Origin: a virus
Taxonomy: Duplodnaviria > Caudoviricetes
DNA length: 52,032 nt
Reading direction: 5' to 3' (one strand)
Virus record (IMG/VR): IMGVR_UViG_3300032320_001353
Location: 1 to 52,032 of that record
The notes under the pieces were generated by a model. The model had not been told where the DNA came from, did not search any database, and saw only the letters and a program-made list of their open reading frames with translations. This document shows positions 4,911-51,095 of the stretch, in pieces (within the stretch, counting starts at the first letter, position 1; each line of letters begins with the position of its first letter). Made by a program: the position numbers and the translations under genes.

Positions 4911-5210
4911 ATGACAATGCCCTCATCTGTTGCCATACTTGGGAGAAACTATGAGATAGCTCTCAAAGACTACATCGAGGGCGACTTGTTAGGGCAGTGT
5001 GATAGTGATGCTTTGAAGATAACAATAAAGAAAGATCAGCCTGAGATATTAGAGGCCGACACTTTGTTACATGAAATATTACATGCCATTGATGATGCGA
5101 TGCAAACAAAGATGAAAGAAAGACAAGTACATTGTACAGCAACAGGAATAATAGCCTTGTTAAAAGACAACCCAGACTTTGTAAAATATATGTTTAAGGC
5201 GGTTAAATAA
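4911..5210 (+). CDS. Small HExxH metallopeptidase-like protein
   Basis: TLLHEILHAI followed by a downstream E; ATG at 4911. Confidence 0.65.
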   Translation: MTMPSSVAILGRNYEIALKDYIEGDLLGQCDSDALKITIKKDQPEILEADTLLHEILHAIDDAMQTKMKERQVHCTATGIIALLKDNPDFVKYMFKAVK

Positions 5211-7342
5211 TGAAAGAAACCTTCACTGCTACACAGAGAGAGATTGTGGCTAGAAAGATGGGCTATGAGGGGCCAATGCAGGGGTTCGATGAATTTCTGA
5301 TGTCCACCCCATCTCAGGCACAACGCTATTCCGACATCACCACTAAGTTTAGTCAGAAGATGGCTAGGGGTGGTGTTGTCAGGCGTTATGCTGCTGGTGG
5401 ATATACTGGTTCAGCAGAGCCAAATAAAGACATTATGCAAATGATTGTTGGTCTTAAGCCAACAGATATGTCTTATGATATTAATGGTGATGGTGAAGTA
5501 AATTTAACTGACTCTATTGGTTATAGTAAAGCAATGGCAGGACAAACTAATCTTGGTTTTACTCCTAGTAAAGATTCTAACTTCTCTGCTTATACAACTT
5601 ATGCAGCAGACCAAAAGAAGATTGCTGATGCTGCTAAAGCTGGAACAACCACTGTTGACACTAACATAGTTAATCCTACACAAGCAGGAGATACATTGGC
5701 TGGTGGGCCTGAGATGCCTAAATACACTGCTGTAGTTGCAAAGGAAACAGCAGTTACATCAGGCATGGCAGGTGCGGCTGATAAGGCAGCAGGGACAGCA
5801 ACAACTGGAACTGCTAGTAAAGTAGCAGATGCAGATGTTACGGGAGTGACTGCTCCTAATAAAGTGGTTGCTACAACAATAGCACCTGATGCGGCACAAA
5901 CTAAAGTAGAGACACAGTTAAAAAATCTGACAGCAGAGCAAGGAACTGTTTCTGATAAGGCACAAGTAACTGCCGCACAACAAGAGCCAACCACAACTGC
6001 TGTGGCTGGGGTTAAAGCTGCTCAAGCAGGAGCTGCGAAGGTGGTTGCACCAGCACAAAGAACTTTGCAAGAAGGTGAACTTGTTTCTGGTAGCACTGTT
6101 GACATGGCTAGAGTGGAAGACACACTAGCTAAAGCTCAAGCAGCAGAAGGCACTGTAACTGAAGAGATGACCGCACAAGGTCAGCTTAATAAACTGCTCA
6201 CAGATTTTGATGCTAAGACCCCTCCTCCTTGGGCTGCTGCTTCTATCAGGGCTGTCACAGCACAGCTTGCTGCCAGAGGCTTAGGTGCTAGTAGCTTGGC
6301 TGGACAGGCTGTCATTCAAGCCACATTGGAAGCTGGTGTACCAATTGCACAAGCTGATGCTAAAGTGTTTGCAGAGATGGGTCTTAGAAATCTTTCTAAT
6401 AGACAGCAAACAGCAATTCTTGTTGCTCAACAAAGAGCAGATTTTCTTAAGCAAGATTTTGATGATGCATTCAAAGCTAAAGTATTGAATGCTGCTAAAA
6501 TATCTGACATTGCAAATAAAAACTTTGATGCTGAAACAACCATTGCATTAGAGAATGCACGGCTTGCTAACAGTATAAACATTGCCAATCTATCAGCAGA
6601 CAATGCTGTGGTGTTGGCTAAGATGACTCAGATGGCATCGTTAGAAACAACCAATCTTAATAATAGACAACTGGCTGCTGTTCAAAATGCAAAAGCATTC
6701 TTAGAGATGGATGTTAAAAATCTAGAATTGAAGCAGCAGACAAATATATTTAAGACACAAAAAATAACAGACTCCATTGTTAGTGATACAGCAGCAGCTA
6801 ATGCTGCTAAAGCAGTCAATGCCACCAATGCTTTGGAGGCAGATAAGATTAATGCTACATTAGCTTTGACAGCAGATCAATATAATGCTGCTGAGAGAAA
6901 CAAAATTAAAGTTGCTAATATGAATGCGGCTAATGAGCTTATAAAGTTTAATGCTCAAGAGCAAAATAACAGGGAAGAGTTTAATTCTAGATTGGTTAGT
7001 GAAATTAATATAGCCAATGCAAAGATATTGGCAGATGTTTCAACAGCTAATACAAGAGAAGTCAATGCTGCTAATGCTGTGAATGCAAAGAATGCAACAG
7101 AATTATCTGGTGTTGCTTATACACAGTTGTCCCAAACCTATCGTGATAAATTAGAGATGTCGTGGAAGACAGGAGAGGCTGAGTTGACTAGGCTCATGGA
7201 ACTAGCGAGGGCTACAATTACAGCTAATGCTTCTGGCAATGCTGCTACAATTCAAGCTAATGCAAATGCTAATACATCAATTGGTAATTTGCTTGTAAAA
7301 GGATTAGACTTATGGGCACAGTCTGGATTTAAAGGCCTATAA
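5210..7342 (+). CDS. Internal virion (ejection) protein, Ala/Asn/Gln-rich
   Basis: 710 aa, helical composition, first of the large late genes. Contains MARGG and YAAGG tags and a DINGDGEVNLTD loop. Confidence 0.65.
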   Translation: MKETFTATQREIVARKMGYEGPMQGFDEFLMSTPSQAQRYSDITTKFSQKMARGGVVRRYAAGGYTGSAEPNKDIMQMIVGLKPTDMSYDINGDGEVNLTDSIGYSKAMAGQTNLGFTPSKDSNFSAYTTYAADQKKIADAAKAGTTTVDTNIVNPTQAGDTLAGGPEMPKYTAVVAKETAVTSGMAGAADKAAGTATTGTASKVADADVTGVTAPNKVVATTIAPDAAQTKVETQLKNLTAEQGTVSDKAQVTAAQQEPTTTAVAGVKAAQAGAAKVVAPAQRTLQEGELVSGSTVDMARVEDTLAKAQAAEGTVTEEMTAQGQLNKLLTDFDAKTPPPWAAASIRAVTAQLAARGLGASSLAGQAVIQATLEAGVPIAQADAKVFAEMGLRNLSNRQQTAILVAQQRADFLKQDFDDAFKAKVLNAAKISDIANKNFDAETTIALENARLANSINIANLSADNAVVLAKMTQMASLETTNLNNRQLAAVQNAKAFLEMDVKNLELKQQTNIFKTQKITDSIVSDTAAANAAKAVNATNALEADKINATLALTADQYNAAERNKIKVANMNAANELIKFNAQEQNNREEFNSRLVSEINIANAKILADVSTANTREVNAANAVNAKNATELSGVAYTQLSQTYRDKLEMSWKTGEAELTRLMELARATITANASGNAATIQANANANTSIGNLLVKGLDLWAQSGFKGL

Positions 7343-9575: not shown

Positions 9576-12500
9576 ATGTCACTTGTTAATGATTTTGAAA
9601 GTTTCATTGCTGCTCAACAATCCCAAGCTAAACAACCCGCCTCTCCTTCTATGGGAGATAGGGCAGAAATTACTGCTAATGATTTCGAAACTTTCAGACA
9701 GACAGCTTCCATTTTAAAGCCTGTTGAAGGCGCTGGTGGTGCTGCTTTTGGCGTGTTCAGGAAGCAGGACAAGAAGTCTTTAGACGAAAGACAAGCAAGA
9801 ATATTAGAAGAGAAAGCAAAACAAGAGGAAGGAAAAACTCCTTTTGCTCAGCTTTACCAAGACCCCGACACATTCAAAAAGATTAATGACTATGCTATTG
9901 CTAGGTTTGGTAAGGCAGGCTTGCCTTTGCCAGAAGAATCCAAAGAAGAATATGTAAAGCGTTGGGCTAGTCATATGCGTATGCTGTCCACTGGTAACTT
10001 GATCAGCGGCACACAAGAACTTAGTTATCTAAATAGCGCATCAAGAGCAGACTTGCTCAAGGCAAAGGATGCCTACGACTTGTTTGAAAACACAGCCAAT
10101 GCTTTCTCTCCTCAAGGCCAAAAAGGATTTAGACCTGTCTTAGATGTACTGGGCAGTGTGTTGTCTGACCCCACCACCGCCATCTCTTTAGGCGCTGGCA
10201 CATTGGCTAAGTCTGCTTTCTTGCAGAAGGCTTCACAGCAAGGCTTTAAGGCTGCTCTAGCTAGCAGACTTGGGGCCACTGCTGTCACTGCTGTGCCTGC
10301 TGTTGAGGGCACAGGTGCTGCTGTGTCTAATGTGCTGGAACAGAAAAGAAAAATTACTACTGATGCTGCCCAGTTGGCAGAGATAAAAGATATATTGCCC
10401 ACCCTCAGCCAAGAAGATCAGGCCAAGATTAAGCCTGATGTTGATGCTTTGGAGGCTAAGGTTAATGAGGGAGTGAGTGGTAAAGAGGTGGCCTTGGCTG
10501 GTGCTATTGGCGCTGTTGGTGGCACCTTGGAGACAGGTGCTTTGTTGCTTGCAGGAAGAGCCGCTAAGGGAGCTAAGCCAACCGCTTTGCAAGATGTCTT
10601 AGCAGGCCGTAAAAAGCCCGTAGAGACTGTTTCTCCCAAGGTTGAGGTGAAAGCCACAGACCCCACAGAAAAGGCGCTAGAAGACGCTTATGACATCTTT
10701 GAAGGCAGACGGCTGCTCAACGCTCAAGGAGAACCTACATCTGTTGCTGAGATGCAAATCAGAAATGATGTGAATAAGAAAGCCACAGAGATTGCTGGTG
10801 AGATATGGAGCCGTGTTCCTGACTTGGCACCAGCCGCTGACCAGAAGGTGAGCGATGCTGTTAAGAATGTTTTCTTGAACATCGACAAGATTGACAATGT
10901 TGTATTGGAAGATGCCTTGGCTAAGGCTGGTGTGACAGCAGAAGAGTTTGCCAGAATGAACAGGACAACAGCAGGTGATGCTGGTCGTACCTTGCAGGCT
11001 TATTCAGTGTTGGCTCGTATTCAAAACAAACTAAAGAGCATTGACCCAGCAGCAGCCAAAGAAGTTGACTTGATGTATGGAGATAGGAATGCTCTCACAT
11101 CAGCCTTCACTGGCCTAAAAGACTTGGGCATGCGTGTGGACAGAGAGCTTAAAGCTTTGATGGTGTCACAGCTTGCCACAACCATTCGTAACGGCTTCTC
11201 TGGCGCTGCTGTAGTGACCTTAGGCACAGCCTCAGAGGCCATTGAATCTGCTTTGTACAGGGCTGGTAAGACAGCCTATGAGCTGGGCAGTGGTAAGCCT
11301 TTGACAGGCAGTTTCACTGGCGGTGTTAAGGGTGTGTATGAGGATGCTGTCAGAACAGCCTTCTATCTGGGACAGAAAGACTTGTCCTCAGATGTTACAG
11401 AAGCTTTGCTTGCTGGTTCACCTGCACTGAGAAGCCGCATCCTGCGTACAGCAGGTGAGGCAGGAGTAAATGAATTGTCTAAGGTGGCTCAGATTGCTAA
11501 CACATTCAATGTGGCCCAAGACGCTTTCTTTCGCAAAGCCATCTTCACTTCCTCTGTTGAGAAACAACTCAGCCGTGTCGGCATAGACATGTATGATGTA
11601 CTGGCACAGGGAAAGAATGTGCCGTTTGATGTATTGAAAAATGCTACAGATGAAGCACTTGCTGCTACATTCAGCAAGATGCCCACCAAAGGGCCAATGT
11701 TCCATGCTGTTAAGTTTGTGGAAGAGCTTGGCCCAATTGGCTCCACTGTCATTCCCTTCCCTCGCTTTATGGCTAATGCCATGACATGGACATACAAGCA
11801 CAGCCCTATGGGCATGTTGTCTGGATCTGCTGATGTTACCAAGGGTGCCACCATGTTGGCTAAGGGTGATGAGACAGGACAGAGATATTTGACACAAGGC
11901 TTGGAGAATGTTTCCAAGGGTGCTGTAGGCACTGCTGCCATCTATGCTGCCTATAAATATCGTGAAGAAAACCAAGACACCTCTTGGTATGATATTAAGA
12001 ACCCAGATGGTAGCTTAGTGGATGCTAGGGCTTTGTTCCCTATGGCTCCCTTCCTAGCCCTTGGTGACTACCTTGTTAAATTTAACAAAGGTAGAACAGA
12101 TGAGTTTAAAACAAAAGAATTCTTAGAAGCAATGACAGGATTTAAAGCCCCTGCTGGAACCTACTCTTGGTTGGGAGATAAGTTTTCTGAATCACTGTCT
12201 AACATGCAGACAGGCGAAGGTAGTGCTGATAAGAAAATATCTACATTCTTTGGTGAGTGGGCTGGTGAATATTTCGGTAGAGCACTTGTTCCAGCGCAAC
12301 AACTTAGTGACATCATTGGTGCCATCGATAGAGATGAGACATTACCCAGAGATGCCTATCAAATTCCTGCTGGTGAAGAAGGCTTCTTATCTTCTGCTCA
12401 ACAGCAGTTGATGAAGCGCACTCCTGTTGTTAAGCAACAGCTTCCTGAATTTCAGCCAGCTACCAGAGAGCAAGCAGCTTTCAATGACTCTGGCCCGTTG

Positions 12501-15293
12501 AAGATGTTCACTGGTATCACCATCAAACAAACTCCAACAATATTGGAAGAAGAAATCACACGGCTTAAGGTGCCTAATAATAAAATCTTTACCTCCACTG
12601 GGGATAAGATTGTGGATGCCAATGCTCGTAAGATTATGGCTCCTTTGCTCATACAAACATTTGATGTTGTTAGAGACACTGACTTCTATAGACAAGCTGG
12701 TCAAGACACACAGAAAATTGTTATGCAAAATCTACTTGGCTGGGTGCAGAAGAATGCTAAAGACATTGCTGTTAAAACATCAGAGGCTGAGGCTTTTGCA
12801 CAAGGCAAACAAGCTCGTTTATTTGAGGTGAAGTATAGTGCTCTGGCACCAGAGGTTAAGAGAGCCACTGCTGAGTTTTATAAACAGAACATGAAGCAAG
12901 ACTTAGCTGAGACAAAAGACTATGTGTCAGCCCTTGCCATTGCTGCTGCCTTGAAGAAACAACCGGGGTTTGCCACTGGTGGTCTTCTTGCTTCTAAAGT
13001 TGCTGGTGAGGTGGTGGGCACAACCCTCAAGAAGTCTGCTAGTGAATTGCTTCAAGAAGCCAAGGCATTAGCGGCTAAGAATGTGCCCACTACAGAGGCT
13101 GTGACTCCTGCTGTTCAGCAAACTAAAACCATGCTAGCAGCACCAGCCAAGAAGGCTGCTCCTCAGCTAGTAACAGAAGCTGCTCCTACACCAGTGGCTC
13201 CTGCTGTTGCTGAGCCTGCTCCAAGCTTCTTAGAAGCCACCAAAGATTATTCCTTTGACCAGATGAACCAAGCTGAGTCTTTGTTAAAGACACAGATGGG
13301 GTCGCAATATCAGTTGGATAAATATAAAGCTGACTTCCCACAAGAATATCAAAATAGTTTGTTGGCTAAGATGAAGGAGCTTTCTACAGAAACAAAGCCT
13401 GCTCCTGATTTACCAACTACAACAGTAGCAGAAGAACTTCCTCCCACACCAACAAAAATAAAACAAGGTAGTGTGTTTGACACTGTGTATGAATTACATA
13501 ACCAATATATATTGGGAGACAAAGAGAGAAATAAGCTCTTTAATAAAGTTAGTAAAGAAGCAGATTTAAACACCATTGCTGGTAGAAAAAAGGGAGAGCT
13601 AAGAGAAGATTTTATTAATAGAAGAAAAGAAACTATAGCTGCTATAAAAGATATAAGGGTTGAAGCGTTCAATGCATTAAAGCAGCTTCCTGAAATGGGA
13701 TCTATTAGTGACGATGCTATAGCTGTTGCTCAAGGCGACTATAGAATGATGAAGAAGAGGGAGGTGGATTTAACCAACCCTGCTGACATCAATGAGTTTG
13801 CTTCGTTTGCTGCTAACTATCAGAAGAGACTTGATGCTTTGAGGGAGAAGTATAAAGATCGCCCACCTGAGCGACTATATCACGGCACCACTACAGAAAG
13901 AACACCAGCTAAAATTGCTAGAGGATTCTTTGACCCTCAGACAAAACAAAATAAGGAACATGCGGAACTTAATGTGGGTGCCACTTCTTTCACCAGAGAT
14001 CTGCGGTTAAATTATTACAGTCCAGAATTTGGTGGTAAGAATGTTAAGAACATATCATACACTGATATACCATATGCTGATTACTTATTTAGAAGAGTGG
14101 ACATGCCGTTGTCTGCTTATGAAAAAGAATTAGGAAAAGATTTTAATTATATGGCCCAAGCAATTACAGGTTCTCCTGACATAGCTAGGCCACTTGGACT
14201 GCCTCGCTCTTTAATTTTTAGGGAAACAGAAGATGCTTTTCTTGAGTCTGAAAAATTAAAAATGAAAACAGACACTAAGTTTAAAGACGCAAACGAAGAT
14301 CTTCAATCTTTTTTAAAAGGGACTAAGCCTGAAGAGACAAGCATACAGAGAAAATATGCAGTTATTGAGAGTGAAAAAAGAAAGCAAAGCTTATATATAA
14401 ATAATATAAGTCAAAAATTATTTGAGATAGATAAGAAACAAACTAAAACACCAAGTGATGTTTATTCTGTCTATCAAGAAATAAAAAGATTATTTAAAAA
14501 TGAGTTTAGACACACAGGAACAGAGAACACAATAAAGCAAGGTGGGCTTGGTAGTTTTAAAAGCAGTCAGACAACAGATAGAAGATTGGAAGAGCTTGTT
14601 AAAGACAAAGATATTACTTATAGTATTGACACAGTAAAAAAATATCTTAAAGAAGTAGGCTCTGATGAGAAGGCTGAAGTGTTAGACGAACTATCAAAAA
14701 ATTTAAAGGTGTTGAAGAAAGTAAAAGATGTGGATGCTCCTATAAAAGAGCAAGAACAATTACTTAAAGAAAGAACCGAAGCTGTCAATGCTGTCAGAAG
14801 ACTTGTTGGTGGTGAAGAGCGTGTGCCTAAGAAGCTTGAAGGAGCCGAAGGCCCAGCTTCACAATATCCAAAGAATGTTAAACGATTGGGCTTGGCTAAG
14901 GGTGGGCTAGGTTTGAAAAGACAAAGCAGCGAAGAAGGCTTAGCACCTTATGGCTTTAGAAACAGTGGAGAAGGTGTCAAAGGTAAGGGATACTTTGGTG
15001 AGCTTACCACAAAGGAAGGGGAAGTGGCTACAGAACTTTCATCTGAATTTGAATATAAAGGAAAGACAGTAGAGCATCCTCTGCTTGTGCCAACATTAAC
15101 TAAAGATGAGGTTGATCATCTATTGGCTGGTAAAGAACCAACAGCAAAGATCTATGACAAGGCTGAGGGCTGGGCTAAGCAACGCTTAGAGCAAGGGAAG
15201 AGTCCCTTTGCTGCACCAGATGAATTGAGAATGCCTGCACCAGATAAAGAAACTAAATATAAAAGAGGTGGGTTGGCTAGAAGGAAGATGTGA
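9576..15293 (+). CDS. Large internal virion (ejection) protein with C-terminal accessory domains
   Basis: 1905 aa, last gene of the arm. FATGG (aa 1132), LYHGT (aa 1434), LAKGG (aa 1773) and YKRGG (aa 1895). Confidence 0.75.
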   Translation: MSLVNDFESFIAAQQSQAKQPASPSMGDRAEITANDFETFRQTASILKPVEGAGGAAFGVFRKQDKKSLDERQARILEEKAKQEEGKTPFAQLYQDPDTFKKINDYAIARFGKAGLPLPEESKEEYVKRWASHMRMLSTGNLISGTQELSYLNSASRADLLKAKDAYDLFENTANAFSPQGQKGFRPVLDVLGSVLSDPTTAISLGAGTLAKSAFLQKASQQGFKAALASRLGATAVTAVPAVEGTGAAVSNVLEQKRKITTDAAQLAEIKDILPTLSQEDQAKIKPDVDALEAKVNEGVSGKEVALAGAIGAVGGTLETGALLLAGRAAKGAKPTALQDVLAGRKKPVETVSPKVEVKATDPTEKALEDAYDIFEGRRLLNAQGEPTSVAEMQIRNDVNKKATEIAGEIWSRVPDLAPAADQKVSDAVKNVFLNIDKIDNVVLEDALAKAGVTAEEFARMNRTTAGDAGRTLQAYSVLARIQNKLKSIDPAAAKEVDLMYGDRNALTSAFTGLKDLGMRVDRELKALMVSQLATTIRNGFSGAAVVTLGTASEAIESALYRAGKTAYELGSGKPLTGSFTGGVKGVYEDAVRTAFYLGQKDLSSDVTEALLAGSPALRSRILRTAGEAGVNELSKVAQIANTFNVAQDAFFRKAIFTSSVEKQLSRVGIDMYDVLAQGKNVPFDVLKNATDEALAATFSKMPTKGPMFHAVKFVEELGPIGSTVIPFPRFMANAMTWTYKHSPMGMLSGSADVTKGATMLAKGDETGQRYLTQGLENVSKGAVGTAAIYAAYKYREENQDTSWYDIKNPDGSLVDARALFPMAPFLALGDYLVKFNKGRTDEFKTKEFLEAMTGFKAPAGTYSWLGDKFSESLSNMQTGEGSADKKISTFFGEWAGEYFGRALVPAQQLSDIIGAIDRDETLPRDAYQIPAGEEGFLSSAQQQLMKRTPVVKQQLPEFQPATREQAAFNDSGPLKMFTGITIKQTPTILEEEITRLKVPNNKIFTSTGDKIVDANARKIMAPLLIQTFDVVRDTDFYRQAGQDTQKIVMQNLLGWVQKNAKDIAVKTSEAEAFAQGKQARLFEVKYSALAPEVKRATAEFYKQNMKQDLAETKDYVSALAIAAALKKQPGFATGGLLASKVAGEVVGTTLKKSASELLQEAKALAAKNVPTTEAVTPAVQQTKTMLAAPAKKAAPQLVTEAAPTPVAPAVAEPAPSFLEATKDYSFDQMNQAESLLKTQMGSQYQLDKYKADFPQEYQNSLLAKMKELSTETKPAPDLPTTTVAEELPPTPTKIKQGSVFDTVYELHNQYILGDKERNKLFNKVSKEADLNTIAGRKKGELREDFINRRKETIAAIKDIRVEAFNALKQLPEMGSISDDAIAVAQGDYRMMKKREVDLTNPADINEFASFAANYQKRLDALREKYKDRPPERLYHGTTTERTPAKIARGFFDPQTKQNKEHAELNVGATSFTRDLRLNYYSPEFGGKNVKNISYTDIPYADYLFRRVDMPLSAYEKELGKDFNYMAQAITGSPDIARPLGLPRSLIFRETEDAFLESEKLKMKTDTKFKDANEDLQSFLKGTKPEETSIQRKYAVIESEKRKQSLYINNISQKLFEIDKKQTKTPSDVYSVYQEIKRLFKNEFRHTGTENTIKQGGLGSFKSSQTTDRRLEELVKDKDITYSIDTVKKYLKEVGSDEKAEVLDELSKNLKVLKKVKDVDAPIKEQEQLLKERTEAVNAVRRLVGGEERVPKKLEGAEGPASQYPKNVKRLGLAKGGLGLKRQSSEEGLAPYGFRNSGEGVKGKGYFGELTTKEGEVATELSSEFEYKGKTVEHPLLVPTLTKDEVDHLLAGKEPTAKIYDKAEGWAKQRLEQGKSPFAAPDELRMPAPDKETKYKRGGLARRKM

Positions 15294-41484: not shown

Positions 41485-41789
41485 CTATTGAATACAGGGG
41501 TAAAACCTTTGAAGGCTATAATAAGCCTAAGAAATCAGACAAGCCAGAAAAGAAGATGATGGTGCTGGCAAAAGAAGGAAGTGTGGTAAAACTCATTCAC
41601 TTCGGGGATGCTTCTATGGGACACAATTATTCTCCAGAAGCAAGGGCTAGTTTTAAAGCAAGGCATGCTGAGAACATTGCTAAAGGGAAAATGAGTGCTG
41701 CTTATTGGGCTAATAAGGAGCTTTGGGCTGGAGGTGGTGGTAGTGTTAAACAACCCCCTAAAGGTCAGAAACAGAAGTTTGGAAAATAA
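41481..41789 (+). CDS. Small basic hypothetical protein
   Basis: GYNKPK...LIHFGD...SFKARH...SAAYWA. Confidence 0.75.
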   Translation: MTIEYRGKTFEGYNKPKKSDKPEKKMMVLAKEGSVVKLIHFGDASMGHNYSPEARASFKARHAENIAKGKMSAAYWANKELWAGGGGSVKQPPKGQKQKFGK

Positions 41790-42256
41790 TGGCTACAAGT
41801 AAAGGCAGCAAAAGAGGCATTGATGAGCAGCAGCTAGAAGGCGGTGGTGGAGGTAGTGGTATTTCTGGCACCAAGTGGAGCAGCATGCCTTCTCTTAAAA
41901 GCAATGCCAGCACTATGGATGACTTAAAGAAAATAGTCTCTGAACCAAATACAAAGCTTAAGGGTGCTGCAAAGGCAGCTAAAGAAGAAGCCATTGACAG
42001 AGCCATCACCAGAACTGCTGTTAGGGCTGGGGCTGCTGGCGCTGCTGGAGCCGCTGTGGCTTCTAGCATAGGTGGTGCTACAGCCACTGAAGGTAGGCAA
42101 AGCAACGGCAGCGATAACGAATTTATGGGATCTGCTAAGAGAGACTCGGGAAATCCCACAGAATACTCAGGAACTGGTATGGCTAAGGGTGGTATGGTTA
42201 ACAAGAAGAAGATGGCATACAATGCTGTGTATATGGGTAAAGACAAAAGGAAATAA
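41789..42256 (+). CDS. Hypothetical protein with MAKGG tag
   Basis: TAATG coupling; 155 aa. Confidence 0.65.
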   Translation: MATSKGSKRGIDEQQLEGGGGGSGISGTKWSSMPSLKSNASTMDDLKKIVSEPNTKLKGAAKAAKEEAIDRAITRTAVRAGAAGAAGAAVASSIGGATATEGRQSNGSDNEFMGSAKRDSGNPTEYSGTGMAKGGMVNKKKMAYNAVYMGKDKRK

Positions 42257-42258
42257 TT

Positions 42259-42558
42259 ATGGCAACAGACGCAGAGAAAGTTAAGAAATATAGAGACATG
42301 GCTGAGGATAAAACCATCCCTCAAGATGTTAGAAACACCTACCTAGACAAGGCCAATGCCATTGAGCTTAAATCCTTTGAAGACTACAAAGCTGGTGGCA
42401 CACAGACCAATAAGCCTTCCAATGCTCCTGCTTCTGCAACAAAGAAGAAAGAGATGGCTAAGGGTGGTTATGCCACCAAGAAGCCTATGATGATGAATAA
42501 GGGTGGCTATGCCAACTGTGGAGCTTCTATGGCTCCTCAACAAAAAGCTAAGAAATGA
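42259..42558 (+). CDS. Hypothetical protein with MAKGG/MNKGG tags
   Basis: AAGGA SD; 99 aa. Confidence 0.65.
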   Translation: MATDAEKVKKYRDMAEDKTIPQDVRNTYLDKANAIELKSFEDYKAGGTQTNKPSNAPASATKKKEMAKGGYATKKPMMMNKGGYANCGASMAPQQKAKK

Positions 42559-43049
42559 AACTTCCAGTAAAATATTCAACAGATCAAAAGCTAAGGGCTT
42601 TGTCTTTGAAATCTAAGGATAGATCATTACCTTTTAGTGAGAGGTCGCAAGCTGAAGACCAATATGAAGCTTTAGCATCTAAAGAGTATGCTAAAGGTGG
42701 TGTTATTAAGAAGGAAACTATTATGGCAACGAAGAAAATGTCTGAGTATGGTGGTAAAGAAATGTATGCTTCTAAGGCTGCAATGATGAAGCATGAGAAG
42801 AAAGAACCCATGAAGATGGAAAAGAAAGAAGCCATGATGGCTAAGGGTGGTATGACCAAGAAGCCTGTGCTTGCCATTATGATTGGAATGGGTAAGCCTA
42901 AGAAAGACATGGCTAAAGGTGGTATGGCTAAGAAGGGCTATGCCGCTGGTGGTATGGCTATGGTTGAAAAAGATGGGAAGAAAGTACCAGCTTTTGCCGC
43001 TGATGGTGTTGGCAAAATGGCTAAAGGTGGCATGACTAAGAAGAAATAA
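42555..43049 (+). CDS. Met/Lys-rich protein with five AxGG tags (possible internal start at 42723)
   Basis: YAKGG, MAKGG x3 and YAAGG; an AAGGA SD precedes the internal MATKK. Confidence 0.7.
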   Translation: MKLPVKYSTDQKLRALSLKSKDRSLPFSERSQAEDQYEALASKEYAKGGVIKKETIMATKKMSEYGGKEMYASKAAMMKHEKKEPMKMEKKEAMMAKGGMTKKPVLAIMIGMGKPKKDMAKGGMAKKGYAAGGMAMVEKDGKKVPAFAADGVGKMAKGGMTKKK

Positions 43050-43956: not shown

Positions 43957-44442
43957 ATGGACAGAGGTGTTGGTAAGTGGATATTGCCTCAGCCAGATAA
44001 CAGAGTGGAATATATACCAATCCCGATGATGGGAACATTGGCTCCATTTGGTTATAAAATAGATGAAGAAAGAGAAGGATGGCTTATTCCCATTCAATCA
44101 GAACTAGATGCTTTAGAAAAAGCTAAGAAGCATTTAAAACAATATGGATTGAGGGCTGTTGCTGCTTGGTTGTCAACAGCTACAGGTAGGCCAATATCCC
44201 ACGCAGGACTTAATAACAGATTAAAATATGAGCAGTCGTACAAGAGAAGAGCTAAAGCTTACCGCAAGCTTGCCCAAGGGTACGAAGAAGCCCTTAGGAA
44301 GGCCGAAGCGTACGAAAGAAGAGCCAACACCACAGCAGAAAGCTACTTCGACTCAGAAGAATACAGAAGGGTTAGAAACACCTTCTCTGATGATAGTGAC
44401 AGAGCCGATAGCTGCTCAGCAAAATGTAATATTCAAGCCTAA
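43957..44442 (+). CDS. Hypothetical DNA-binding protein
   Basis: PFGY...LRAVAAWLS..TGR.ISH.GL; GAGG SD; overlaps the terL 5' end. Confidence 0.65.
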   Translation: MDRGVGKWILPQPDNRVEYIPIPMMGTLAPFGYKIDEEREGWLIPIQSELDALEKAKKHLKQYGLRAVAAWLSTATGRPISHAGLNNRLKYEQSYKRRAKAYRKLAQGYEEALRKAEAYERRANTTAESYFDSEEYRRVRNTFSDDSDRADSCSAKCNIQA

Positions 44443-45814
44443 TGTAGGGCCGCAGACAGCGTTCTTAGCGGCCTCTGAAAGAGAAGTGTTATATGGTGGG
44501 GCTGCTGGTGGTGGTAAAAGTTATGCCATGCTGGCAGACCCCATTAGATATTTAAATCACCCTCAGTTTTCTGGATTGTTGCTACGCCACACAACAGAAG
44601 AACTTAGAGAACTCATTTGGAAAAGCCAAGAGATATATCCCAAGATTTATCCCGGCATCAAGTGGAGTGAGAGAAAGATGCAATGGCAAACACCTTCTGG
44701 TGCTAGGCTGTGGATGTCATATCTGGATAGAGATGAAGATGTGTTGAGATATCAGGGGTTGGCCTTTAGCTGGATTGGTTTTGATGAGCTAACCCAGTGG
44801 CACACCCCTTTTGCTTGGAACTATATGCGTTCTCGCTTGCGTACACCCGCAGCAGATCTGCCTATTTTTATGAGAGCAACAACAAACCCCGGTGGGCCGG
44901 GACATGCTTGGGTTAAGAAGATGTTTATTGACCCTTCTCCATCTAGAAAAGCCTTCTGGGCTACAGATATTGAGACAGGGGAGACACTAGCCTACCCCAA
45001 AGGGCATAGCAAAGAGGGACAGCCTCTTTTTAAACGCCGCTTTATACCAGCAATGCTGACAGATAACCCCTATCTAGCTGATAGCGGCGACTACGAAACC
45101 ATGTTGTTGTCTCTTCCTGAGCATCAACGCAAGCAATTGCTTGAGGGTAACTGGGATATTGCGGAAGGAGCAGCCTTCCCTGAGTTTAATAGGGCTGTTC
45201 ATGTGGTGAATAGCTTTGAAATACCCAAAAACTGGGTAAAATTTAGGGCGTGTGACTATGGATATGGTAGTTTTAGTGCTGTTGTATGGTTTGCTGTCAC
45301 CCCTAGTGAGCAACTTGTCCTCTATCGTGAACTATATGTTAGCAAAGTGCTGGCAAAAGACCTTGCACACATGATATTGCAGGCAGAAGCCAACGATGGT
45401 GGCATCAGATATGGTGTGTTGGACAGTAGTTGCTGGCATAAGAGAGGGGATACAGGCCCATCGCTAGCAGAACAGATGATTATGGAGGGCTGTAGATGGA
45501 GGCCAGCAGATAGAAGTGCTGGAAGTAGGGTAGCAGGGAAGAACGAATTTCATAGAAGACTACAAATTGACCCATTTACAGAACAACCAAGAATGATTAT
45601 AACAAGCAACTGTGTTAATACGATTGCTCAAATCCCTGTGCTTCCTTTAGATAAAAAGAACCCAGAAGATATTGATACAAGGACAGAAGATCATCTTTTT
45701 GATGCTATACGATACGGAATTATGAGTAGACCTAGAAGCGGGCTGTTTGATTATAATCCTCTTCACTCTGGAAAAGGCGGCATGAGAATAGCTGATCCTA
45801 TTATGGGGTACTAA
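44228..45814 (+). CDS. terL: Terminase large subunit (alternative start 44390)
   Basis: Walker A GGAAGGGKS, Walker B IGFDEL, ATTNPGG, nuclease DYGY and DHLFDAIRY. Confidence 0.93.
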   Translation: MSSRTREELKLTASLPKGTKKPLGRPKRTKEEPTPQQKATSTQKNTEGLETPSLMIVTEPIAAQQNVIFKPNVGPQTAFLAASEREVLYGGAAGGGKSYAMLADPIRYLNHPQFSGLLLRHTTEELRELIWKSQEIYPKIYPGIKWSERKMQWQTPSGARLWMSYLDRDEDVLRYQGLAFSWIGFDELTQWHTPFAWNYMRSRLRTPAADLPIFMRATTNPGGPGHAWVKKMFIDPSPSRKAFWATDIETGETLAYPKGHSKEGQPLFKRRFIPAMLTDNPYLADSGDYETMLLSLPEHQRKQLLEGNWDIAEGAAFPEFNRAVHVVNSFEIPKNWVKFRACDYGYGSFSAVVWFAVTPSEQLVLYRELYVSKVLAKDLAHMILQAEANDGGIRYGVLDSSCWHKRGDTGPSLAEQMIMEGCRWRPADRSAGSRVAGKNEFHRRLQIDPFTEQPRMIITSNCVNTIAQIPVLPLDKKNPEDIDTRTEDHLFDAIRYGIMSRPRSGLFDYNPLHSGKGGMRIADPIMGY

Positions 45815-46315
45815 ATGGAAATAATTACTAGAAAAGAAGCAAAAGAACTTGGTTCTTTATTTTATTTTACAGGTCTAGCATGTCCTTATGGACATATAGT
45901 AAGAAGATACACAAAAACTTCTAACTGTGTAACTTGTCATGCTATTTATTATGCTAGTGATGAGCAAAAAAATAAACAAAAAGAATATAGAGAAAAACAC
46001 AAAAAAGAAAAAGCTGTTTATGATAAAAATTTTTCAAAGGAAAACGCGGCATATCGTAATTCGTTAAAGTCTGCGAATAGAGCTAAAAGAAAACAAAGAA
46101 TAGTTCCGTGGGATAAAGAGCTTACTGATTTTGTTACAATTGAAGCTTACGACTTAGCTAAATTAAGAAACAAAGTTACAGGTATTAGTTGGCATGTGGA
46201 TCATGTCATACCTTTGTGTGGTAAGAATATTTGTGGTCTTCATGTATGGAATAATCTAAGAGTTATTCCCGCCTCAGAAAATCTGAGGAAAGGTAATAGA
46301 ATAGATAAGGAATAA
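45815..46315 (+). CDS. HNH homing endonuclease (free-standing)
   Basis: YFTG..C..GH...C..C, WHVDHVIPL, GLHVWNNL and EN..K.N; AT-rich. Confidence 0.88.
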   Translation: MEIITRKEAKELGSLFYFTGLACPYGHIVRRYTKTSNCVTCHAIYYASDEQKNKQKEYREKHKKEKAVYDKNFSKENAAYRNSLKSANRAKRKQRIVPWDKELTDFVTIEAYDLAKLRNKVTGISWHVDHVIPLCGKNICGLHVWNNLRVIPASENLRKGNRIDKE

Positions 46316-46316
46316 T

Positions 46317-48419
46317 ATGGCAGAGATGAAACCTATGCTTGGTGACAAAACCCTAGCTTTAGACGATGTAAAGAATAAAGAAGACGAAGGCGTATCAATT
46401 GATGGCCTTGTCAGCTATATCAACGAAAGATATACAAGATCTGAAGAGAGCAGGCGTAAGGATGAGACACGCTGGCTGAGAGCCTATAGAAACTACAGAG
46501 GCATCTATGGGCCAGATGTTCAATTCACTGAGACTGAGAAGTCGAGAGTGTTTATTAAAGTTACCAAAACTAAAACACTGGCAGCTTATGGACAAATAAC
46601 AGATGTGTTATTTTCCAATAACAAGTTTCCTCTGTCTGTTGACCCCACAGTGTTGCCTGATGGCGTGGTAGATAGCGTCAGTTCTGACCCCAAAGGAACA
46701 CCCTCCACTAAGACAGGCCCAACAGAGATTCCTTATGGTGAAGCAGGTGGTGCCAGCATTCCTAAAGACTTCGACTTAGACAAGCTTGAAGAATTGCTAG
46801 GGTCTATGAAAGACGATCTTAAAGATCTGCCTAATTTGAAAGAAGGGCCGGGAGCAACTCCCACTTCCATGACCTTTAGTCCTGCTATGGTGGCAGCTAA
46901 GAAGATGGAGAAGAAGATACATGACCAACTAGATGAAACAGGTGCTTCTAAGCATCTGCGTTCTACAGCCTTTGAGATGGCTCTGTTTGGCACTGGTGTT
47001 ATGAAGGGGCCGTTTGCCACCAATAAGGAATATGCCAATTGGGGTGAAGATGGTACATATAGTCCTCTGATTAAGACAGTGCCAGAAGCTGCCCATGTTT
47101 CTCTCTGGAACTTCTATTGGGATCCTGATGCCAACAACACTGATGAGTGTCAGTATGTTATTGAGCGTCATAAGATGAGCAAGACAAAGCTTCGTGCTTT
47201 GAAACAACGCCCATATTTCAGAGGCAATGTTATTGACCAACTCATTGATGAAGGTGAGACATACACCAAGAAATATTGGGAAGACGATCTAAGAGACTAT
47301 GCTCCCAACTTTGGTGTTGAGCGTTTTGAGGTGTTGGAATATTGGGGCAATGTAGATATTGAATTGCTTCAAGAGAATGATATTGTTATTCCTGATGACA
47401 TGCTCAGTGCTGGAGAACTCCAAGCAAACATTTGGTATTGCAATGGAAAAATATTGAGGCTTGTTCTCAATCCATTCAAGCCTGCAAAGATTCCCTATTA
47501 TGCTGTGCCTTACGAATTAAACCCCTACTCTCTAGCAGGTGTAGGTGTCGCCGAAAATATGGACGATACCCAAACCTTAATGAATGGTTTTATGCGTATG
47601 GCTGTGGATAATGGGGTCTTATCTGGAAACCTTGTCTTTGAAATTGATGAAACAAACTTAGTGCCGGGACAAGACTTATCTGTCTATCCCGGTAAAGTGT
47701 TTAGAAGACAAGGTGGTGCTCCCGGTCAAGCTTTGTTTGGAACAAAGTTTCCAAATGTGGCAGCAGAGAATATGCAACTGTTTGATAAAGCAAGACAGCT
47801 TGCTGATGAATCAACTGGTATGCCTTCGTTCTCTCATGGACAGACAGGAATATCTGGTGTAGGTAGAACAGCTAGTGGCATCAGCATGTTGATGAATGCT
47901 GCTAGTGGAAGTATCAAGACAGTTATTAAAAATCTGGATGACTACCTCCTTGGCCCCATTGGTCAAGCCTTCTTCAACTTCAATATGCAGTTTGACTTTG
48001 ATAAAGAAATCAAAGGAGACTTGGAAGTTACAGCTAAAGGCACAGAAAGCTTGATGGCTAATGAGGTGAGAAGCCAACGCTTGATGCAATTCTTGCAGAT
48101 TGCCAGCAGCCCAGCCTTGATGCCCTTTGCTAAGTTTCCTTACATCATCAGAGAAATTGCAAAGAGCATGGACTTAGACCCAGAGAAGGTGACTAACAAC
48201 ATGGATGAAGCCATGCGTCAAGCAGTGTTGTTGCAACAGACACAGCCTGCCCCTGCCCCTGCCGCTGGTGGACAGCCTCCACAAGGCGTTGCTGGGCCTC
48301 CCGGTGTAGCTGATATGACAGGTGGTGGCGGTGGTAACATTGGTGTTGGCGCACCGCCTTCACCAGAGATGCAAGGATTTAGTGGAAATGAGCAACAAGC
48401 CGTACCTCCCCAAGCTTAA
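46317..48419 (+). CDS. Portal protein
   Basis: 700 aa after terL; FGTGVMKG, FYWDP, GVGVAE and RTASGISML; Pro/Gly tail. Confidence 0.85.
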   Translation: MAEMKPMLGDKTLALDDVKNKEDEGVSIDGLVSYINERYTRSEESRRKDETRWLRAYRNYRGIYGPDVQFTETEKSRVFIKVTKTKTLAAYGQITDVLFSNNKFPLSVDPTVLPDGVVDSVSSDPKGTPSTKTGPTEIPYGEAGGASIPKDFDLDKLEELLGSMKDDLKDLPNLKEGPGATPTSMTFSPAMVAAKKMEKKIHDQLDETGASKHLRSTAFEMALFGTGVMKGPFATNKEYANWGEDGTYSPLIKTVPEAAHVSLWNFYWDPDANNTDECQYVIERHKMSKTKLRALKQRPYFRGNVIDQLIDEGETYTKKYWEDDLRDYAPNFGVERFEVLEYWGNVDIELLQENDIVIPDDMLSAGELQANIWYCNGKILRLVLNPFKPAKIPYYAVPYELNPYSLAGVGVAENMDDTQTLMNGFMRMAVDNGVLSGNLVFEIDETNLVPGQDLSVYPGKVFRRQGGAPGQALFGTKFPNVAAENMQLFDKARQLADESTGMPSFSHGQTGISGVGRTASGISMLMNAASGSIKTVIKNLDDYLLGPIGQAFFNFNMQFDFDKEIKGDLEVTAKGTESLMANEVRSQRLMQFLQIASSPALMPFAKFPYIIREIAKSMDLDPEKVTNNMDEAMRQAVLLQQTQPAPAPAAGGQPPQGVAGPPGVADMTGGGGGNIGVGAPPSPEMQGFSGNEQQAVPPQA

Positions 48420-48603
48420 ACCCTTAGTAAATAACAATTTACAGTGGGATGCTTTTGTGGAAATGTTAGACAATGAGATTGATAGTCAGCATAAGAAGCT
48501 TGAACAGTCTAAAGATGTTCAAGATATTTATCAATCTCAAGGAGCCATTAGTGCTCTGCGTAGACTTAAATATTTAAAGGATGAGATAAATGCTCAGCAA
48601 TGA
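48388..48603 (+). CDS. Small conserved protein downstream of portal
   Basis: LKPLVN...QSQG.I.ALR.LK.LKDE. Confidence 0.65.
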   Translation: MSNKPYLPKLKPLVNNNLQWDAFVEMLDNEIDSQHKKLEQSKDVQDIYQSQGAISALRRLKYLKDEINAQQ

Positions 48604-50050
48604 AACACAAAAACTTCTGGCAGAAGGCGGCATGCCAGATGAAGGAAATACAGTTGATCCTGTTAGCGGCAATCAAGTTCCTCCCGGTGCTATGCAAGAA
48701 GAAGTGAGGGATGATATTCCTGCACAACTAAGTGAGGGTGAGTTTATTTTTCCTGCTGATGTAGTTAGATATATTGGCCTAGAAACACTAATGAAGATTA
48801 GAGATAAGGCCAAATCTGGATTAAAGAGAATGGAAGACATTGGTCAAATGGGAAACGCTAATCAAGTAGAAAACCCAGAAGCCCTTCATTCATCAGGAGA
48901 AGACATAAATGATGAAGATTTTTCATCCTCTATAGATGAGATTATGAATGAAGGCAACCCTGAAGAAAGAAACTATGCCACTGGTGGTAATGTAACACCA
49001 GTATCTGGTTTTGAAATGGTGAAGTATAAAGACGCAAATGGTAACTTTATGTATGTTCCTTTTGTTAAAGGACAACCTCTTTTAAAAATACCCGCTGGAT
49101 ATACCAGAGTGTCGGGGCCAGAAGATACTACTACGAAAACAACTACAACTGGTGGTGGGGGTAGCGGAACTACTCAAACTACTTCTGGAGGAGATGGTGG
49201 CGGTGGTGAAGGCGGCAGCAGTTCATCCTCCTCAGGTGGTGTTAATGCGGACGGCTCAGTGAGTGTTGGAGGAATGACAGGTTTTAGTGTTGGTACAAAT
49301 GGGGTGGCTTCTGCTAATATGAGTTCTACTACTGGTAGTATTGCTGGAAGCATATTGGGGGCCGTCACAGGAATAGGCTTTCTGGGAGCCATCGGAAGAG
49401 GTCTTGGAATGATAGGCGAATCTAATGCGGCTGCTTTTAATGCCTCTGTTGCAGACAGTTCTGATCAAGCTGGACAAGGAGCTACAGCAACCGCAGGCCC
49501 ATCTGGTACTGGTGGTGTAGCCGCTTCCGCTGCTGGGGCAGTTGCTGGTGCTGCACAGTCAGCAGGTATGTCAGCAGAAGCCGCTGCTATTGGGGCACAA
49601 GCCGCTGCTGATGCAGCAGTGCAGGGGGCTGATGCTATTGGTGCCTTTGCCGCTGGCTTTGCAGCAGCAGAGGCCGCTAATGACGCACAAGGAACGGCTG
49701 GAGAAGGCTTTGGAGGAACTGGTGCTGTTGGTAGTGGAGATCTAGGAAGCATTGGTGGAGAGGGTTTTGGTGGAGAAGGCGGCGTTGGTGTTGGTGGTGA
49801 TGCTGGTCTTGGTGGGCTTGGTAGTTCTGGTGGTGAAAGTGGCGGTGCTGATGCTGGCGGTAGTGGTAGTTCTGATGGTGGTGGCGGTGCTGCTGGCGGC
49901 GGTGATGGTGGAGGTGGTGCTGCTGGCGGCGGTGATGGTGGAGGTGGTGGTGGTGGAGATGGCGGTGGTGGGGGTGGCGGTGACGGCGGCGGTGGTAGCG
50001 GTGATGCTAAAGGCGGCTTTGTTTCCAAGAAGTATAGAAAGAAAAAATAA
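48590..50050 (+). CDS. Virion protein with DDIPAQLSEGEF domain, AxGG tags and Gly-rich tail
   Basis: AAGGA SD; LAEGG, YATGG and DAKGG; central hydrophobic Gly/Ala segment. Confidence 0.7.
   Translation: MLSNETQKLLAEGGMPDEGNTVDPVSGNQVPPGAMQEEVRDDIPAQLSEGEFIFPADVVRYIGLETLMKIRDKAKSGLKRMEDIGQMGNANQVENPEALHSSGEDINDEDFSSSIDEIMNEGNPEERNYATGGNVTPVSGFEMVKYKDANGNFMYVPFVKGQPLLKIPAGYTRVSGPEDTTTKTTTTGGGGSGTTQTTSGGDGGGGEGGSSSSSSGGVNADGSVSVGGMTGFSVGTNGVASANMSSTTGSIAGSILGAVTGIGFLGAIGRGLGMIGESNAAAFNASVADSSDQAGQGATATAGPSGTGGVAASAAGAVAGAAQSAGMSAEAAAIGAQAAADAAVQGADAIGAFAAGFAAAEAANDAQGTAGEGFGGTGAVGSGDLGSIGGEGFGGEGGVGVGGDAGLGGLGSSGGESGGADAGGSGSSDGGGGAAGGGDGGGGAAGGGDGGGGGGGDGGGGGGGDGGGGSGDAKGGFVSKKYRKKK
49886..49945 (+). 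repeat. 30-bp tandem duplication in the Gly-rich tail
   Basis: GGTGCTGCTGGCGGCGGTGATGGTGGAGGT x2. Confidence 0.9.
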
Positions 50051-50240: not shown

Positions 50241-51095
50241 ATGTCCGAAGTTGTTCTAGATAAAAAAGAAGAAGTTAAAGTTTATTCTGGTTTTAGCAAA
50301 CGAAATGCTAATCAAGAGAAGATTGAACAAGAAGAAGCTGAGCTTAAGGCTCTTCAAGAAGAGAATAAAGATGAGGAGAAAGCTCCAGAAGCTGAGCCAG
50401 AAAGCGCAGAAGAGCGTAGCTTTAAAAAGCGTTATGGGGATTTGCGGAGACATTCTCAGCAACAACAAACCCAGCTTCAAAGCCAAGTTGATGAGCTAAA
50501 GAAACAGCTTGAACAAAGCACCAGCAATCAAATTAAGCTGCCTAAATCAGAGGAAGAGCTTTCTGAGTGGGCAAGACAATATCCTGATGTGGCAAAAATT
50601 GTAGAAACAATTGCCATCAAGAAGGCCAAAGAACAAACAGAAGCCCTTGACCAACGCCTTAAATCGTTGGATGAGCGTGAAGCTTTGACAGCTAAAGATG
50701 AAGCTGAGGCTGAATTACTGCGTCTGCATCCCGATTTTGACCAGATTAGGGATGATGATGAGTTCCATAACTGGGTGGATGAGCAGCCTAAATGGGTGCA
50801 ACAAGCCCTGTATGAGAACGACACAGACGCTAGAGCAGCAGCTAGAGCCATTGATCTGTACAAAGCAGACAAGAAGATTGCTACAAAGAGGAGCACAAGC
50901 AACAGAGATGCAGCACAAAGTATTAATACTAAAGGTGGCAGGTCTGCTCCTTCTGGTGAAGACAAAGATGGCATGATTTATGAATCACAGGTGGCTAAGA
51001 TGTCTACACTAGAATATGAAAAGTATCAGGAAGAGATTGGTAAAGCAATTAAATCTGGTAAGTTTGTATACGATTTGAGTGGTAACGCTCGTTAA
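50241..51095 (+). CDS. Capsid scaffolding protein
   Basis: Acidic coiled coil, FKKRYGDLRRH and HPDF; located immediately before the MCP gene. Confidence 0.75.
   Translation: MSEVVLDKKEEVKVYSGFSKRNANQEKIEQEEAELKALQEENKDEEKAPEAEPESAEERSFKKRYGDLRRHSQQQQTQLQSQVDELKKQLEQSTSNQIKLPKSEEELSEWARQYPDVAKIVETIAIKKAKEQTEALDQRLKSLDEREALTAKDEAEAELLRLHPDFDQIRDDDEFHNWVDEQPKWVQQALYENDTDARAAARAIDLYKADKKIATKRSTSNRDAAQSINTKGGRSAPSGEDKDGMIYESQVAKMSTLEYEKYQEEIGKAIKSGKFVYDLSGNAR

Follow-up and report, generated by a model that had tools for sequence, protein, structure and literature searches.

Why would a podovirus encode, within its head gene cluster, a protein whose N-terminal part resembles the exit end of a siphovirus tape measure protein (TMP)? 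This question is raised by an open reading frame (ORF) on the + strand of IMG/VR record IMGVR_UViG_3300032320_001353, the whole of which (52,032 nucleotides, with an estimated completeness of 93%) is the window analysed here and belongs to an HMO-2011-type podovirus. The ORF (48590..50050) starts with ATG and encodes 486 aa; its product is an orthologue of HMO-2011 gp49, in a short form without cargo domains. A preliminary description, made from the sequence alone, had singled it out as a TMP-like protein and a candidate reader of short AxGG motifs, and ORF calling together with a position-by-position check recovered the ORF and every feature that had been listed. Sequence comparison confirms that residues ~39-83 (DDIPAQLSEGEFIF, PADVVRYIG and a helix, with AEGG before them) are homologous to a module of siphovirus TMPs, and we put at about even the chance that the protein is packaged and ejected, doing in a podovirus what the C-terminal end of the TMP does in siphoviruses.

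A module shared with siphovirus tape measure proteins

The shared module lies within an acidic N-terminal region of 100 residues, here called the hook, which is present once in the window. The first AxGG, LAEGGM (aa 10-15), is followed by an extended DPVSGNxVPPG stretch; the hairpin core DDIPAQLSEGEFIF occupies aa 41-54, at the start of DDIPAQLSEGEFIFPADVVR (aa 41-60, nt 48710-48769), and PADVVRYIG then leads into an amphipathic helix running up to GQMGN (aa 85-89).

Even at E<=10, neither the whole protein nor its N-terminal 100-180 residues matched any Pfam or NCBIfam model, and a PHROG scan of the whole protein gave no match. With aa 1-100 as the query, 4 of 6 weak PHROG matches were TMP families (E 0.0012-0.055). 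A tblastn search with aa 28-100 against 50,697 phage records at E<=10 returned 94 records, the best 60 of which were listed, 14 from HMO-2011-type phages and 46 from others. Among these 46, 37 coincide with features labelled tape measure and 3 with the same TMP gene annotated as gp14/gp15, and the rest comprise hypothetical proteins of the pelagiphages HTVC104P/103P/027P, of 023Pt_psg01 and of Rhizobium phage RHph_TM3_14A, as well as one unannotated record. BLASTP of aa 1-180 against the C-terminal end of the Burkholderia phage phiE125 TMP gave E 4e-7 (one single comparison). The sequence of phiE125 gp15 reads FHLATGGAVWGPGTSTSDSIPAQLSNGEFVVRAAVV...RFAAGGLV, and that of lambda gpH 733-783 reads FHFATGGF...PAGIVHRGEFVFTKEATSRIG...GYATGGYV.

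A profile of HMO-type hooks, searched against 454 six-frame ORFs of annotated loci at a nominal database size of 100,000, matched module-bearing proteins only: two orthologues and then four others, namely RHph_TM3_14A (E 3.4e-6), HTVC104P gp81 (2.4e-5), the phiE125 TMP (3.2e-3) and the Quantum TMP (0.81). The profile gave no direct match to lambda gpH among these ORFs; gpH is tied to the module via the aligned TMP set and by eye. When the hook profile was compared with hhalign to six aligned TMP modules, the probability was 97.7% over 44 columns (hook aa 40-83), and to four podoviral modules it was 98.2%, values which are inflated and overstate independence since the targets were picked from earlier matches. 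A better control is the reverse search from the HTVC104P gp81 module, which reached 1014 of the 50,697 phage records at E<=0.01; of 59 spread rows, 50 carry a TMP label and one belongs to the HMO-type phage CRP-212. Another homologue search, the third, gave 3208/5996 candidates at E<=0.001, the 120 listed being near-identical TMPs of Burkholderia prophages. The PHROG, tblastn, BLASTP, profile-profile and reverse-search evidence thus bears out the tape-measure likeness claimed in the preliminary description.

The HTVC104P module also matches a 'putative bacteriophage-related transmembrane protein' of Synechococcus phage S-SM2 (NC_015279.1 7698-7805, E 4e-3). As S-SM2 is a T4-like cyanomyovirus, the module may extend beyond sipho- and podoviruses.

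Shared between siphovirus TMPs and the window protein are hydrophobic-AxGG-hydrophobic, a loop, D-x-IPAxLSxGEFV, AxAV..G, a helix and often a second AxGG, with a Gly-rich hydrophobic stretch nearby. In the window protein this stretch (aa 247-275) is similar to the hydrophobic Gly/Ala stretch that immediately precedes the module in lambda gpH and the phiE125 TMP. Several features set the two apart, however: the module stands near the N-terminal and not the C-terminal end, the loop from AxGG to hairpin measures 26 aa against 10-12 in TMPs, and the hydrophobic stretch comes after the module, whereas in TMPs it comes before. Furthermore, the window protein has no tail-length ruler. In place of a long helical ruler it has 486 aa (180-857 aa in syntenic homologues) of which residues 181-470 are of Gly/Ala/Ser low complexity, and its gene stands between the portal gene and a scaffold-like gene of a podovirus, not in the tail cluster of a long-tailed phage.

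The module lies 31-116 residues from the C-terminal end in six TMPs (phiE125, Quantum, JustBecause, DSL-LC04, lambda and JBD30) and 32-51 residues from it in four podoviral proteins, which are putative ejection proteins; of these, HTVC104P gp81 is encoded between the portal and a scaffold-like gene, and the other three precede very large structural proteins. In 8/10 aligned modules a GG, with A, R or another residue before it and a hydrophobic residue after, stands 10-27 residues ahead of the hairpin, so that AxGG-hydrophobic is the first element of the module. For this reason AxGG-hydrophobic looks like part of a fold or interface and not like a separate substrate. In lambda gpH, Pfam family PF09718 (Tape_meas_lam_C) ends up just upstream of the module and leaves it uncovered, and the motifs 1-3 described for mycobacteriophage TMPs (Pedulla/Piuri) are other, larger host-like domains (PMC1796659). 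No description of the module turned up in our literature search, part of which was a text search for GEFV-type strings together with 'tape measure'.

Counted along the alignment, residues 1022-1066 of JBD30 gp46 are exactly the module. For these residues the JBD30 authors predict two helices and a short hairpin that form a hook, and they speculate, by analogy with T5, that once the C-terminal domain has been released this hook anchors the TMP inside the baseplate (PMC11445458). In T5, the last 43 residues of pb2* are described as lying in a crevice of the hub, adjoining a 46-residue hydrophobic stretch that enters the membrane (PMC10038345). AlphaFold folding of the window protein covered aa 1-180, with a mean pLDDT of 64; the predicted helices 56-62 and 64-84 (pLDDT ~70-76) agree with the published hook prediction but add little, and the hairpin region is poorly defined.

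Architecture and variation of the gp49 family

A tblastn search with the window protein found 14 phage records, including HMO-2011, eleven CRP roseophages and one freshwater contig, and in every annotated relative the gene is labelled hypothetical. The gene order of HMO-2011 is identical, with gp49 (YP_008320311.1) a 762-aa hypothetical protein, and among 80 related IMG/VR loci the order TerL-portal-homologue-scaffold-MCP (MCP, major capsid protein) is kept wherever flanks exist. The HMO-2011, CRP roseophage and MW202701 orthologues have the same position and the same hook. Judged by identity to HMO-2011 and MW202701, the hook (55-67%, core 65-76%) is conserved at the level of the core genes portal (69-79%) and TerL (73-76%). 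In wider searches, aa 1-180 matched 4839/5599 candidate proteins of 267-851 aa and 1557/1799 of 852-2430 aa at E<=0.001, the best matches being of the E 1e-60 class.

Conservation is confined mainly to two blocks. The hook has the consensus faeGG..EGGTvDPVSGNdVPpGs.QEEVRDDIpAqLSEGEFVfPADVVRYIGLe.LM..RdkAK.GLk.MEeiGQMGN and is separated by an acidic linker from the second AxGG, with which block 2 (consensus a.GG.v...IPF.nG.P..iPeGy) begins. Block 2 is predicted as a small beta-hairpin domain and is the sole part to which AlphaFold assigns confidence (pLDDT 87-89, aa 141-170). The middle of the protein is hypervariable, with no alignment possible between subgroups. Part of this middle in the window, the poly-Gly region, is encoded by DNA with tandem repeats of period 15 and 30; at 49819-49994, repeats of period 12, 15, 30 and 45 code for the poly-Gly/Asp stretch, and slippage there could be a source of tail-length variation among relatives.

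At the C-terminal end, which in the window reads AKGGFVSKKYRKKK, a tag recurs. Among 53 complete homologues beside the scaffold gene (180 to 857 aa), 44 carry [AS]xGG-hydrophobic among their last 30 residues, with ~50% Lys/Arg after it, 4 have near-variants (YRGGF, FAGGL, SKQGL, KTGF) and 5 have no tag. A further set of 240 database homologues, made up of 120 near-length and 120 long proteins as listed, has A.GG-hydrophobic in the last 30 residues in 130 cases and GG-hydrophobic in 201, and many of them end in KRGGLASRK. The window protein has the hook sequence, the position between portal and scaffold-like gene and the C-terminal tag of this family. Going by the alignments, the family is modular, with a hook, a hypervariable Gly/Ala-rich middle and a basic C-terminal tag (AKGG-hydrophobic-x-x-KK).

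Natural variants take this architecture apart. The shortest forms (180-186 aa) consist of the hook, the acidic linker, one internal AxGG, a short Pro/Gln linker and MAKGGLMAKKKM, and have neither block 2 nor the hydrophobic segment. In 6/59 loci the ORF stops directly after the hook, being either the hook alone (122-125 aa) or cargo plus hook (455-460 aa); in 5 of these 6 a second ORF of 502-594 aa begins within a few bases, contains the hydrophobic Gly/Ala-rich part and terminates in block 2, as at 9992-11881 of locus L066, with the tag present in L066 and L067 and absent in L072, L073 and L077. Such split genes indicate that hook, block 2 and tag are separable units.

At the other extreme, long homologues have an internal hook, which can begin as far in as residue 1091 and has block 2 and the tail after it; a median of 289 aa follows the last matched block among the 240 homologues listed. 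Compared with the 486 aa of the window protein, HMO-2011 gp49 has 762 and the MW202701 protein 994. The latter (homologue P0123; L002 7846-10830), from the closest named relative, has its hook beginning at residue 386, and its 385-aa N-terminal extension matches no Pfam family. In longer relatives, cargo domains lie N-terminal to the hook. Precomputed Pfam domains occur in 30 of the 120 long homologues listed (LPD23 in 14, Phage_L5_gp82 in 15, Hom_end_hint in 2 and Phage_lysozyme2 in 1, two proteins bearing LPD23 and gp82 together), and ART-PolyVal occurs in 1 of the 120 near-length homologues listed. A scan of seven homologues placed four domains above Pfam cut-offs, namely ART-PolyVal in P0067 (59.1 bits), Phage_lysozyme2 in P0235 (59.7), L5_gp82 in P0138 (30.7) and LPD23 in P0159 (28.5), the remaining matches being just under them.

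ART-PolyVal and LPD23 are described as signature domains of polyvalent proteins, which have been proposed to be packaged in the head and injected (Iyer et al. 2017, PMC5512222). The window protein differs from its long relatives in this respect: Pfam finds no effector or LPD domain on it, so that it lacks the two or more domains that define a polyvalent protein, and the hook-tail-tag unit matches no Pfam LPD model.

Ejection and docking weighed against other roles

Two functions had been put forward in the preliminary description, binding or (auto)cleavage of AxGG tags and a part in an ejected, membrane-spanning conduit. Homology and architecture favour the second, for which we infer virion presence, ejection, docking and membrane insertion; on the sequence evidence, an injected protein with a docking or channel role is a likelier reading than a protease. 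It would be packaged in the head beside the portal and leave through the tail channel, largely unfolded, ahead of or together with the DNA. The hook module would then dock in the lumen of the exit channel, and the Gly-zipper hydrophobic segment and the flexible Gly/Ala-rich chain would extend into the cell envelope. In the longer relatives, the hook-tail-tag unit would be the delivery part of polyvalent proteins with enzymes such as an ADP-ribosyltransferase or a tail lysozyme. The low AlphaFold confidence (pLDDT 64 and, for a natural 180-aa hook-plus-tag homologue, 54) is in line with a chain that needs a partner in order to fold, or that travels unfolded. By analogy, T5 pb2* (PMC10038345), T7 gp14-16 and P22 gp7/16/20 would be alike in the proposed tail exit, docking and envelope insertion.

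A number of observations weigh against this ejection and docking role. In the Lilbeanie TMP the module is internal, ~700 aa from the C-terminal end, and the TMP of mycobacteriophage Douge (gp16, PDB 8zdo chain S) has two internal modules, at 964-1039 and 1412-1460. Solved tails show only the last 33 (JBD30), 42 (Douge) and 32 (lambda) TMP residues (PMC11445458, PMC13033339, PMC12617516); the module is not visible in these maps, and the function ascribed to it in TMPs is a published prediction. No PHROG or Pfam match links the window protein to T7 gp14-16 or P22 gp7/16/20-type families, and a literature search, which took in the consulted text of an ISME J paper on HMO-2011-type phages (PMC9038755), found no virion proteomics or structure for any phage of this type. 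The segment aa 247-275 is borderline as a transmembrane segment, and the 180-186-aa forms that lack it together with block 2 imply that membrane insertion is not the core function of the family. Finally, N-terminal cargo in the long relatives fits awkwardly with a hook anchored in a channel.

The gene slot and the fusions would also suit a head-incorporation adaptor in the manner of SPP1 gp7 or Mu F. The hook would bind portal, scaffold or coat during procapsid assembly and load the protein with its fused cargo, and the tail would be a spacer with no role in a conduit or in cell-envelope anchoring. According to Iyer et al., MuF/SPP1 gp7, a minor head protein encoded after the portal, carries effectors of the polyvalent kind, and the combination of slot and cargo fusions in the gp49 family resembles MuF proteins (PMC5512222). 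Additionally, wherever a locus includes flanks the gene comes directly after the portal, evolution of the hook keeps pace with that of the portal, and the minimal 180-aa forms retain only hook, one internal AxGG and tag. We nevertheless regard an adaptor as rather unlikely. The window protein matches neither MuF (Phage_Mu_F, at E<=10) nor any other Pfam family, so that the likeness to MuF/gp7 is one of gene position only, and the same module occurs in TMPs, which are tail-lumen proteins and not portal-bound. As far as the sequences tell, an adaptor accounts for position and fusions but not for the TMP homology.

A second proposal that draws on gene position, to which we give a smaller chance, is a factor for assembly alone, such as a portal/scaffold chaperone or head-size factor that is absent from the mature virion and whose Gly-rich tail is an entropic spacer. 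Its place inside the head-assembly cluster beside a small conserved ORF and the intrinsic disorder predicted by AlphaFold agree with such a factor. Against it speak the homology to a module found in ejected tail proteins and the fusions to ART-PolyVal and tail lysozyme, enzymes that would serve no purpose unless they reached the host.

The AxGG motifs have to be considered beyond the hook itself. A.GG[FYMLIVW] occurs 13 times in + strand structural-module ORFs, where 2.4 are expected, and 0/2000 residue shuffles reach 13; without the gp49 homologue there are 11 against 1.6 expected, and the - strand module has 0 against 0.9. These 13 tags fall in seven proteins, including the gp49 homologue (2), three small basic proteins (7, of which 5 in the 164-aa protein at 42555-43049), a 710-aa protein (2) and a 1905-aa protein (2), and two more matches lie in ORFs taken as spurious. 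The small basic, 710-aa and 1905-aa proteins have no Pfam or PHROG family. Small ORFs upstream of TerL carry [KL][ML]AKGGM-type tags in 31/31 related loci with at least 3 kb of flank there. The tags noted in the preliminary description are therefore real, enriched in structural-module proteins and conserved in relatives. The basic C-terminal tag is probably a common address or docking label, whether a packaging signal or a contact with DNA or channel. Encapsulin cargo-loading peptides are short C-terminal Gly-Gly/hydrophobic/basic peptides on proteins bound for the interior of an HK97-fold shell, and the tags resemble them in pattern only, being here also internal and multicopy.

With one hook per genome and 13 tags in seven proteins, the hook could be imagined as a reader acting in trans, which would bind AxGG-hydrophobic tags on the other structural proteins and so collect them, for instance at the portal. 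The tagged small basic ORFs upstream of TerL in all 31 related loci with enough flank are in keeping with a reader, as are the 5/59 loci split right after the hook, in which hook and tail can act as separate chains. The co-occurrence of hook and tags, proposed earlier as a check, was indeed found in 31/31 related loci, but these are one phage group and do not constitute independent evidence. Moreover, the AxGG of TMPs is in cis, 10-12 residues ahead of the hairpin and part of the module. Structure prediction with the tag, also proposed as a check, could be made on the natural 180-aa hook-plus-tag homologue (mean pLDDT 53.7), in which AlphaFold leaves the C-terminal tag unstructured. We hold a tag reader to be very unlikely. 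A complex prediction of aa 1-180 with the 164-aa tag protein scored 0.00 without controls and is no evidence either way.

The idea that the AxGG is a cleavage site, at which the module would either cut itself or offer the site to a protease in place of a missing head protease, draws on lambda. There, gpH is processed within its Gly-rich C-terminal part, yielding gpH* and a ~14-kDa piece, with site and catalyst reported as unknown (PMC12617516); the module lies at or just after the cut region, and a cut after G737 computes to 80.1 + 12.2 kDa, an agreement that is within gel error and proves nothing. T5 pb2 is likewise reported to be cleaved beside its anchor (PMC10038345). On the window protein, however, no Pfam, PHROG or NCBIfam peptidase matched even at E<=10, and across the module family there is no conserved His or nucleophile/base pair, and no catalytic residue is conserved (lambda has VH where other modules have LS, and K75 is not retained in TMPs). 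The preliminary description was right that no head protease is recognisable, as the 93%-complete record contains no S78, Prok-JAB or S49 family (PF04586 and PF01343 absent; S77 not searched). Its argument from a protease slot is weak, since that slot is occupied in SPP1/Mu-type heads by gp7/MuF, a minor head protein that is packaged (PMC5512222). A processing module is accordingly a highly improbable explanation, and binding or cleavage of the tags, as first suggested, has no support. P22-type heads, moreover, need no protease.

A broader proposal is also conceivable: hydrophobic-AxGG-hydrophobic, with or without basic residues, would be a shared addressing or docking code for DNA-channel proteins, TMPs included; the hook would receive the strand or be processed there, lambda gpH would be cut at ATGG 734-737, and the C-terminal tags would load internal proteins into the HK97-fold head in the manner of encapsulin cargo peptides. 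We consider it unlikely.

Structural searches added several candidates that were set aside: a Foldseek search of the PDB (best E 0.4, small unrelated beta proteins) was not used, a PDB sequence search gave dextransucrase only (E 0.33, a chance match), and crAss cargo protein 1, the nearest named ESM Atlas cluster (0.84), was below the lead threshold and had no Pfam support. The nearest ESM Atlas clusters are unnamed viral proteins.

Gene neighbourhood and wider significance

The features of the locus are collected in Table 1. Locally, the genes run in the order TerL (44228-45814), a 166-aa ORF, portal, a small ORF, the gp49 homologue, a 284-aa gene and the major capsid gene. Genes for the tubular tail proteins are absent from the 93%-complete record. 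The preliminary description had placed the protein between portal and scaffold; the portal is supported by Pfam and PHROG, and the scaffold label is positional only, its PHROG family having no assigned function.

Table 1. Positions of the gp49 homologue, its parts and associated genes in the window
Feature	Position	Strand	Basis or remark
Whole ORF	48590..50050	+	486 aa, HMO-2011 gp49 orthologue
N-terminal 'hook' module, aa 1-100	48590..48889	+	48-sequence alignment: 33 invariant positions
Module core aligning with TMP modules, aa 39-83	48704..48838	+	sequence/profile comparison
Second AxGG YATGGN (aa 128-133) and conserved block 2, through aa 178	48971..49123	+	alignment, AlphaFold
Gly/Ser/Thr-rich low-complexity linker, aa 181-246	49130..49327	+	composition
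Hydrophobic Gly-zipper-like segment, aa 247-275	49328..49414	+	Kyte-Doolittle maximum 1.79 over 19 aa
Ala-rich region, aa 276-370	49415..49699	+	composition, 42% Ala
Acidic poly-Gly region, aa 371-470	49700..49999	+	composition, 61% Gly, net charge -12
Basic C-terminal tag GDAKGGFVSKKYRKKK, aa 471-486	50000..50047	+	kept across family
Portal gene	46317..48419	+	PF23899 SU10_portal E 8.7e-25; phrog_332 2e-78
Small conserved ORF, ~71 aa from internal ATG	48388..48603	+	overlaps portal 3' end and first 14 nt of the gp49 homologue
284-aa scaffold-like gene	50241..51095	+	phrog_13678, no assigned function; 'scaffold' from position alone
Major capsid protein gene	51418->	+	phrog_267 5e-29
Three small basic Lys/Met-rich proteins (155, 99, 164 aa)	41789..43049	+	7 of 13 tags, form hydrophobic-AKGG-hydrophobic-xxKK
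710-aa structural-module protein	5210..7342	+	tags at aa 52 and 61
1905-aa structural-module protein	9576..15293	+	tags at aa 1133 and 1774

The small conserved ORF has its positional equivalent in HMO-2011 gp50, and a similar ORF lies at 9802-10014 of L066; it may serve translational coupling to the gp49 homologue or encode its chaperone. The 166-aa ORF in the gap between TerL and portal (45815-46315, +) is HNH-like by eye, with the ending VDHVIPL...NL..IP..EN, and has no Pfam match at E<=0.01. A similar ORF in L066 (9263-9805) is placed between the portal and the small ORF, a difference in placement that fits the expectation for a mobile homing endonuclease. Further upstream, a 102-aa ORF (41481-41789, +) matches phrog_7595 and also segment 521-605 of the 1338 positions of phrog_220, 'minor head protein and DNA pilot' (E 1.1e-16), and a 54-aa ORF (43051-43215, +) matches DUF6496 (E 1.1e-8). 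By their sequence matches, both are small pieces, standing on their own here, of domains found elsewhere in large polyvalent-type proteins.

HMO-2011-type phages are reported to be among the most abundant marine phage groups, with ten core genes of which several have no known function (PMC9038755). What is new here, on sequence grounds, is that a TMP-type docking module appears to have been recruited to, or to be shared with, a head-cluster family of podoviruses whose abundance in aquatic viromes is very high. That a head-cluster protein of a podovirus is linked by sequence to the exit end of siphovirus TMPs suggests a portable docking or delivery module shared across tail types, one that lies outside Pfam yet occurs in ~1000 of 50,697 phage records. 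For lambda, the question of gpH processing gains a concrete place to look. For HMO-2011-type phages, the gp49 homologue becomes a candidate ejection protein, and in a class of injected enzyme fusions its hook-tail-tag unit is probably the part responsible for delivery.

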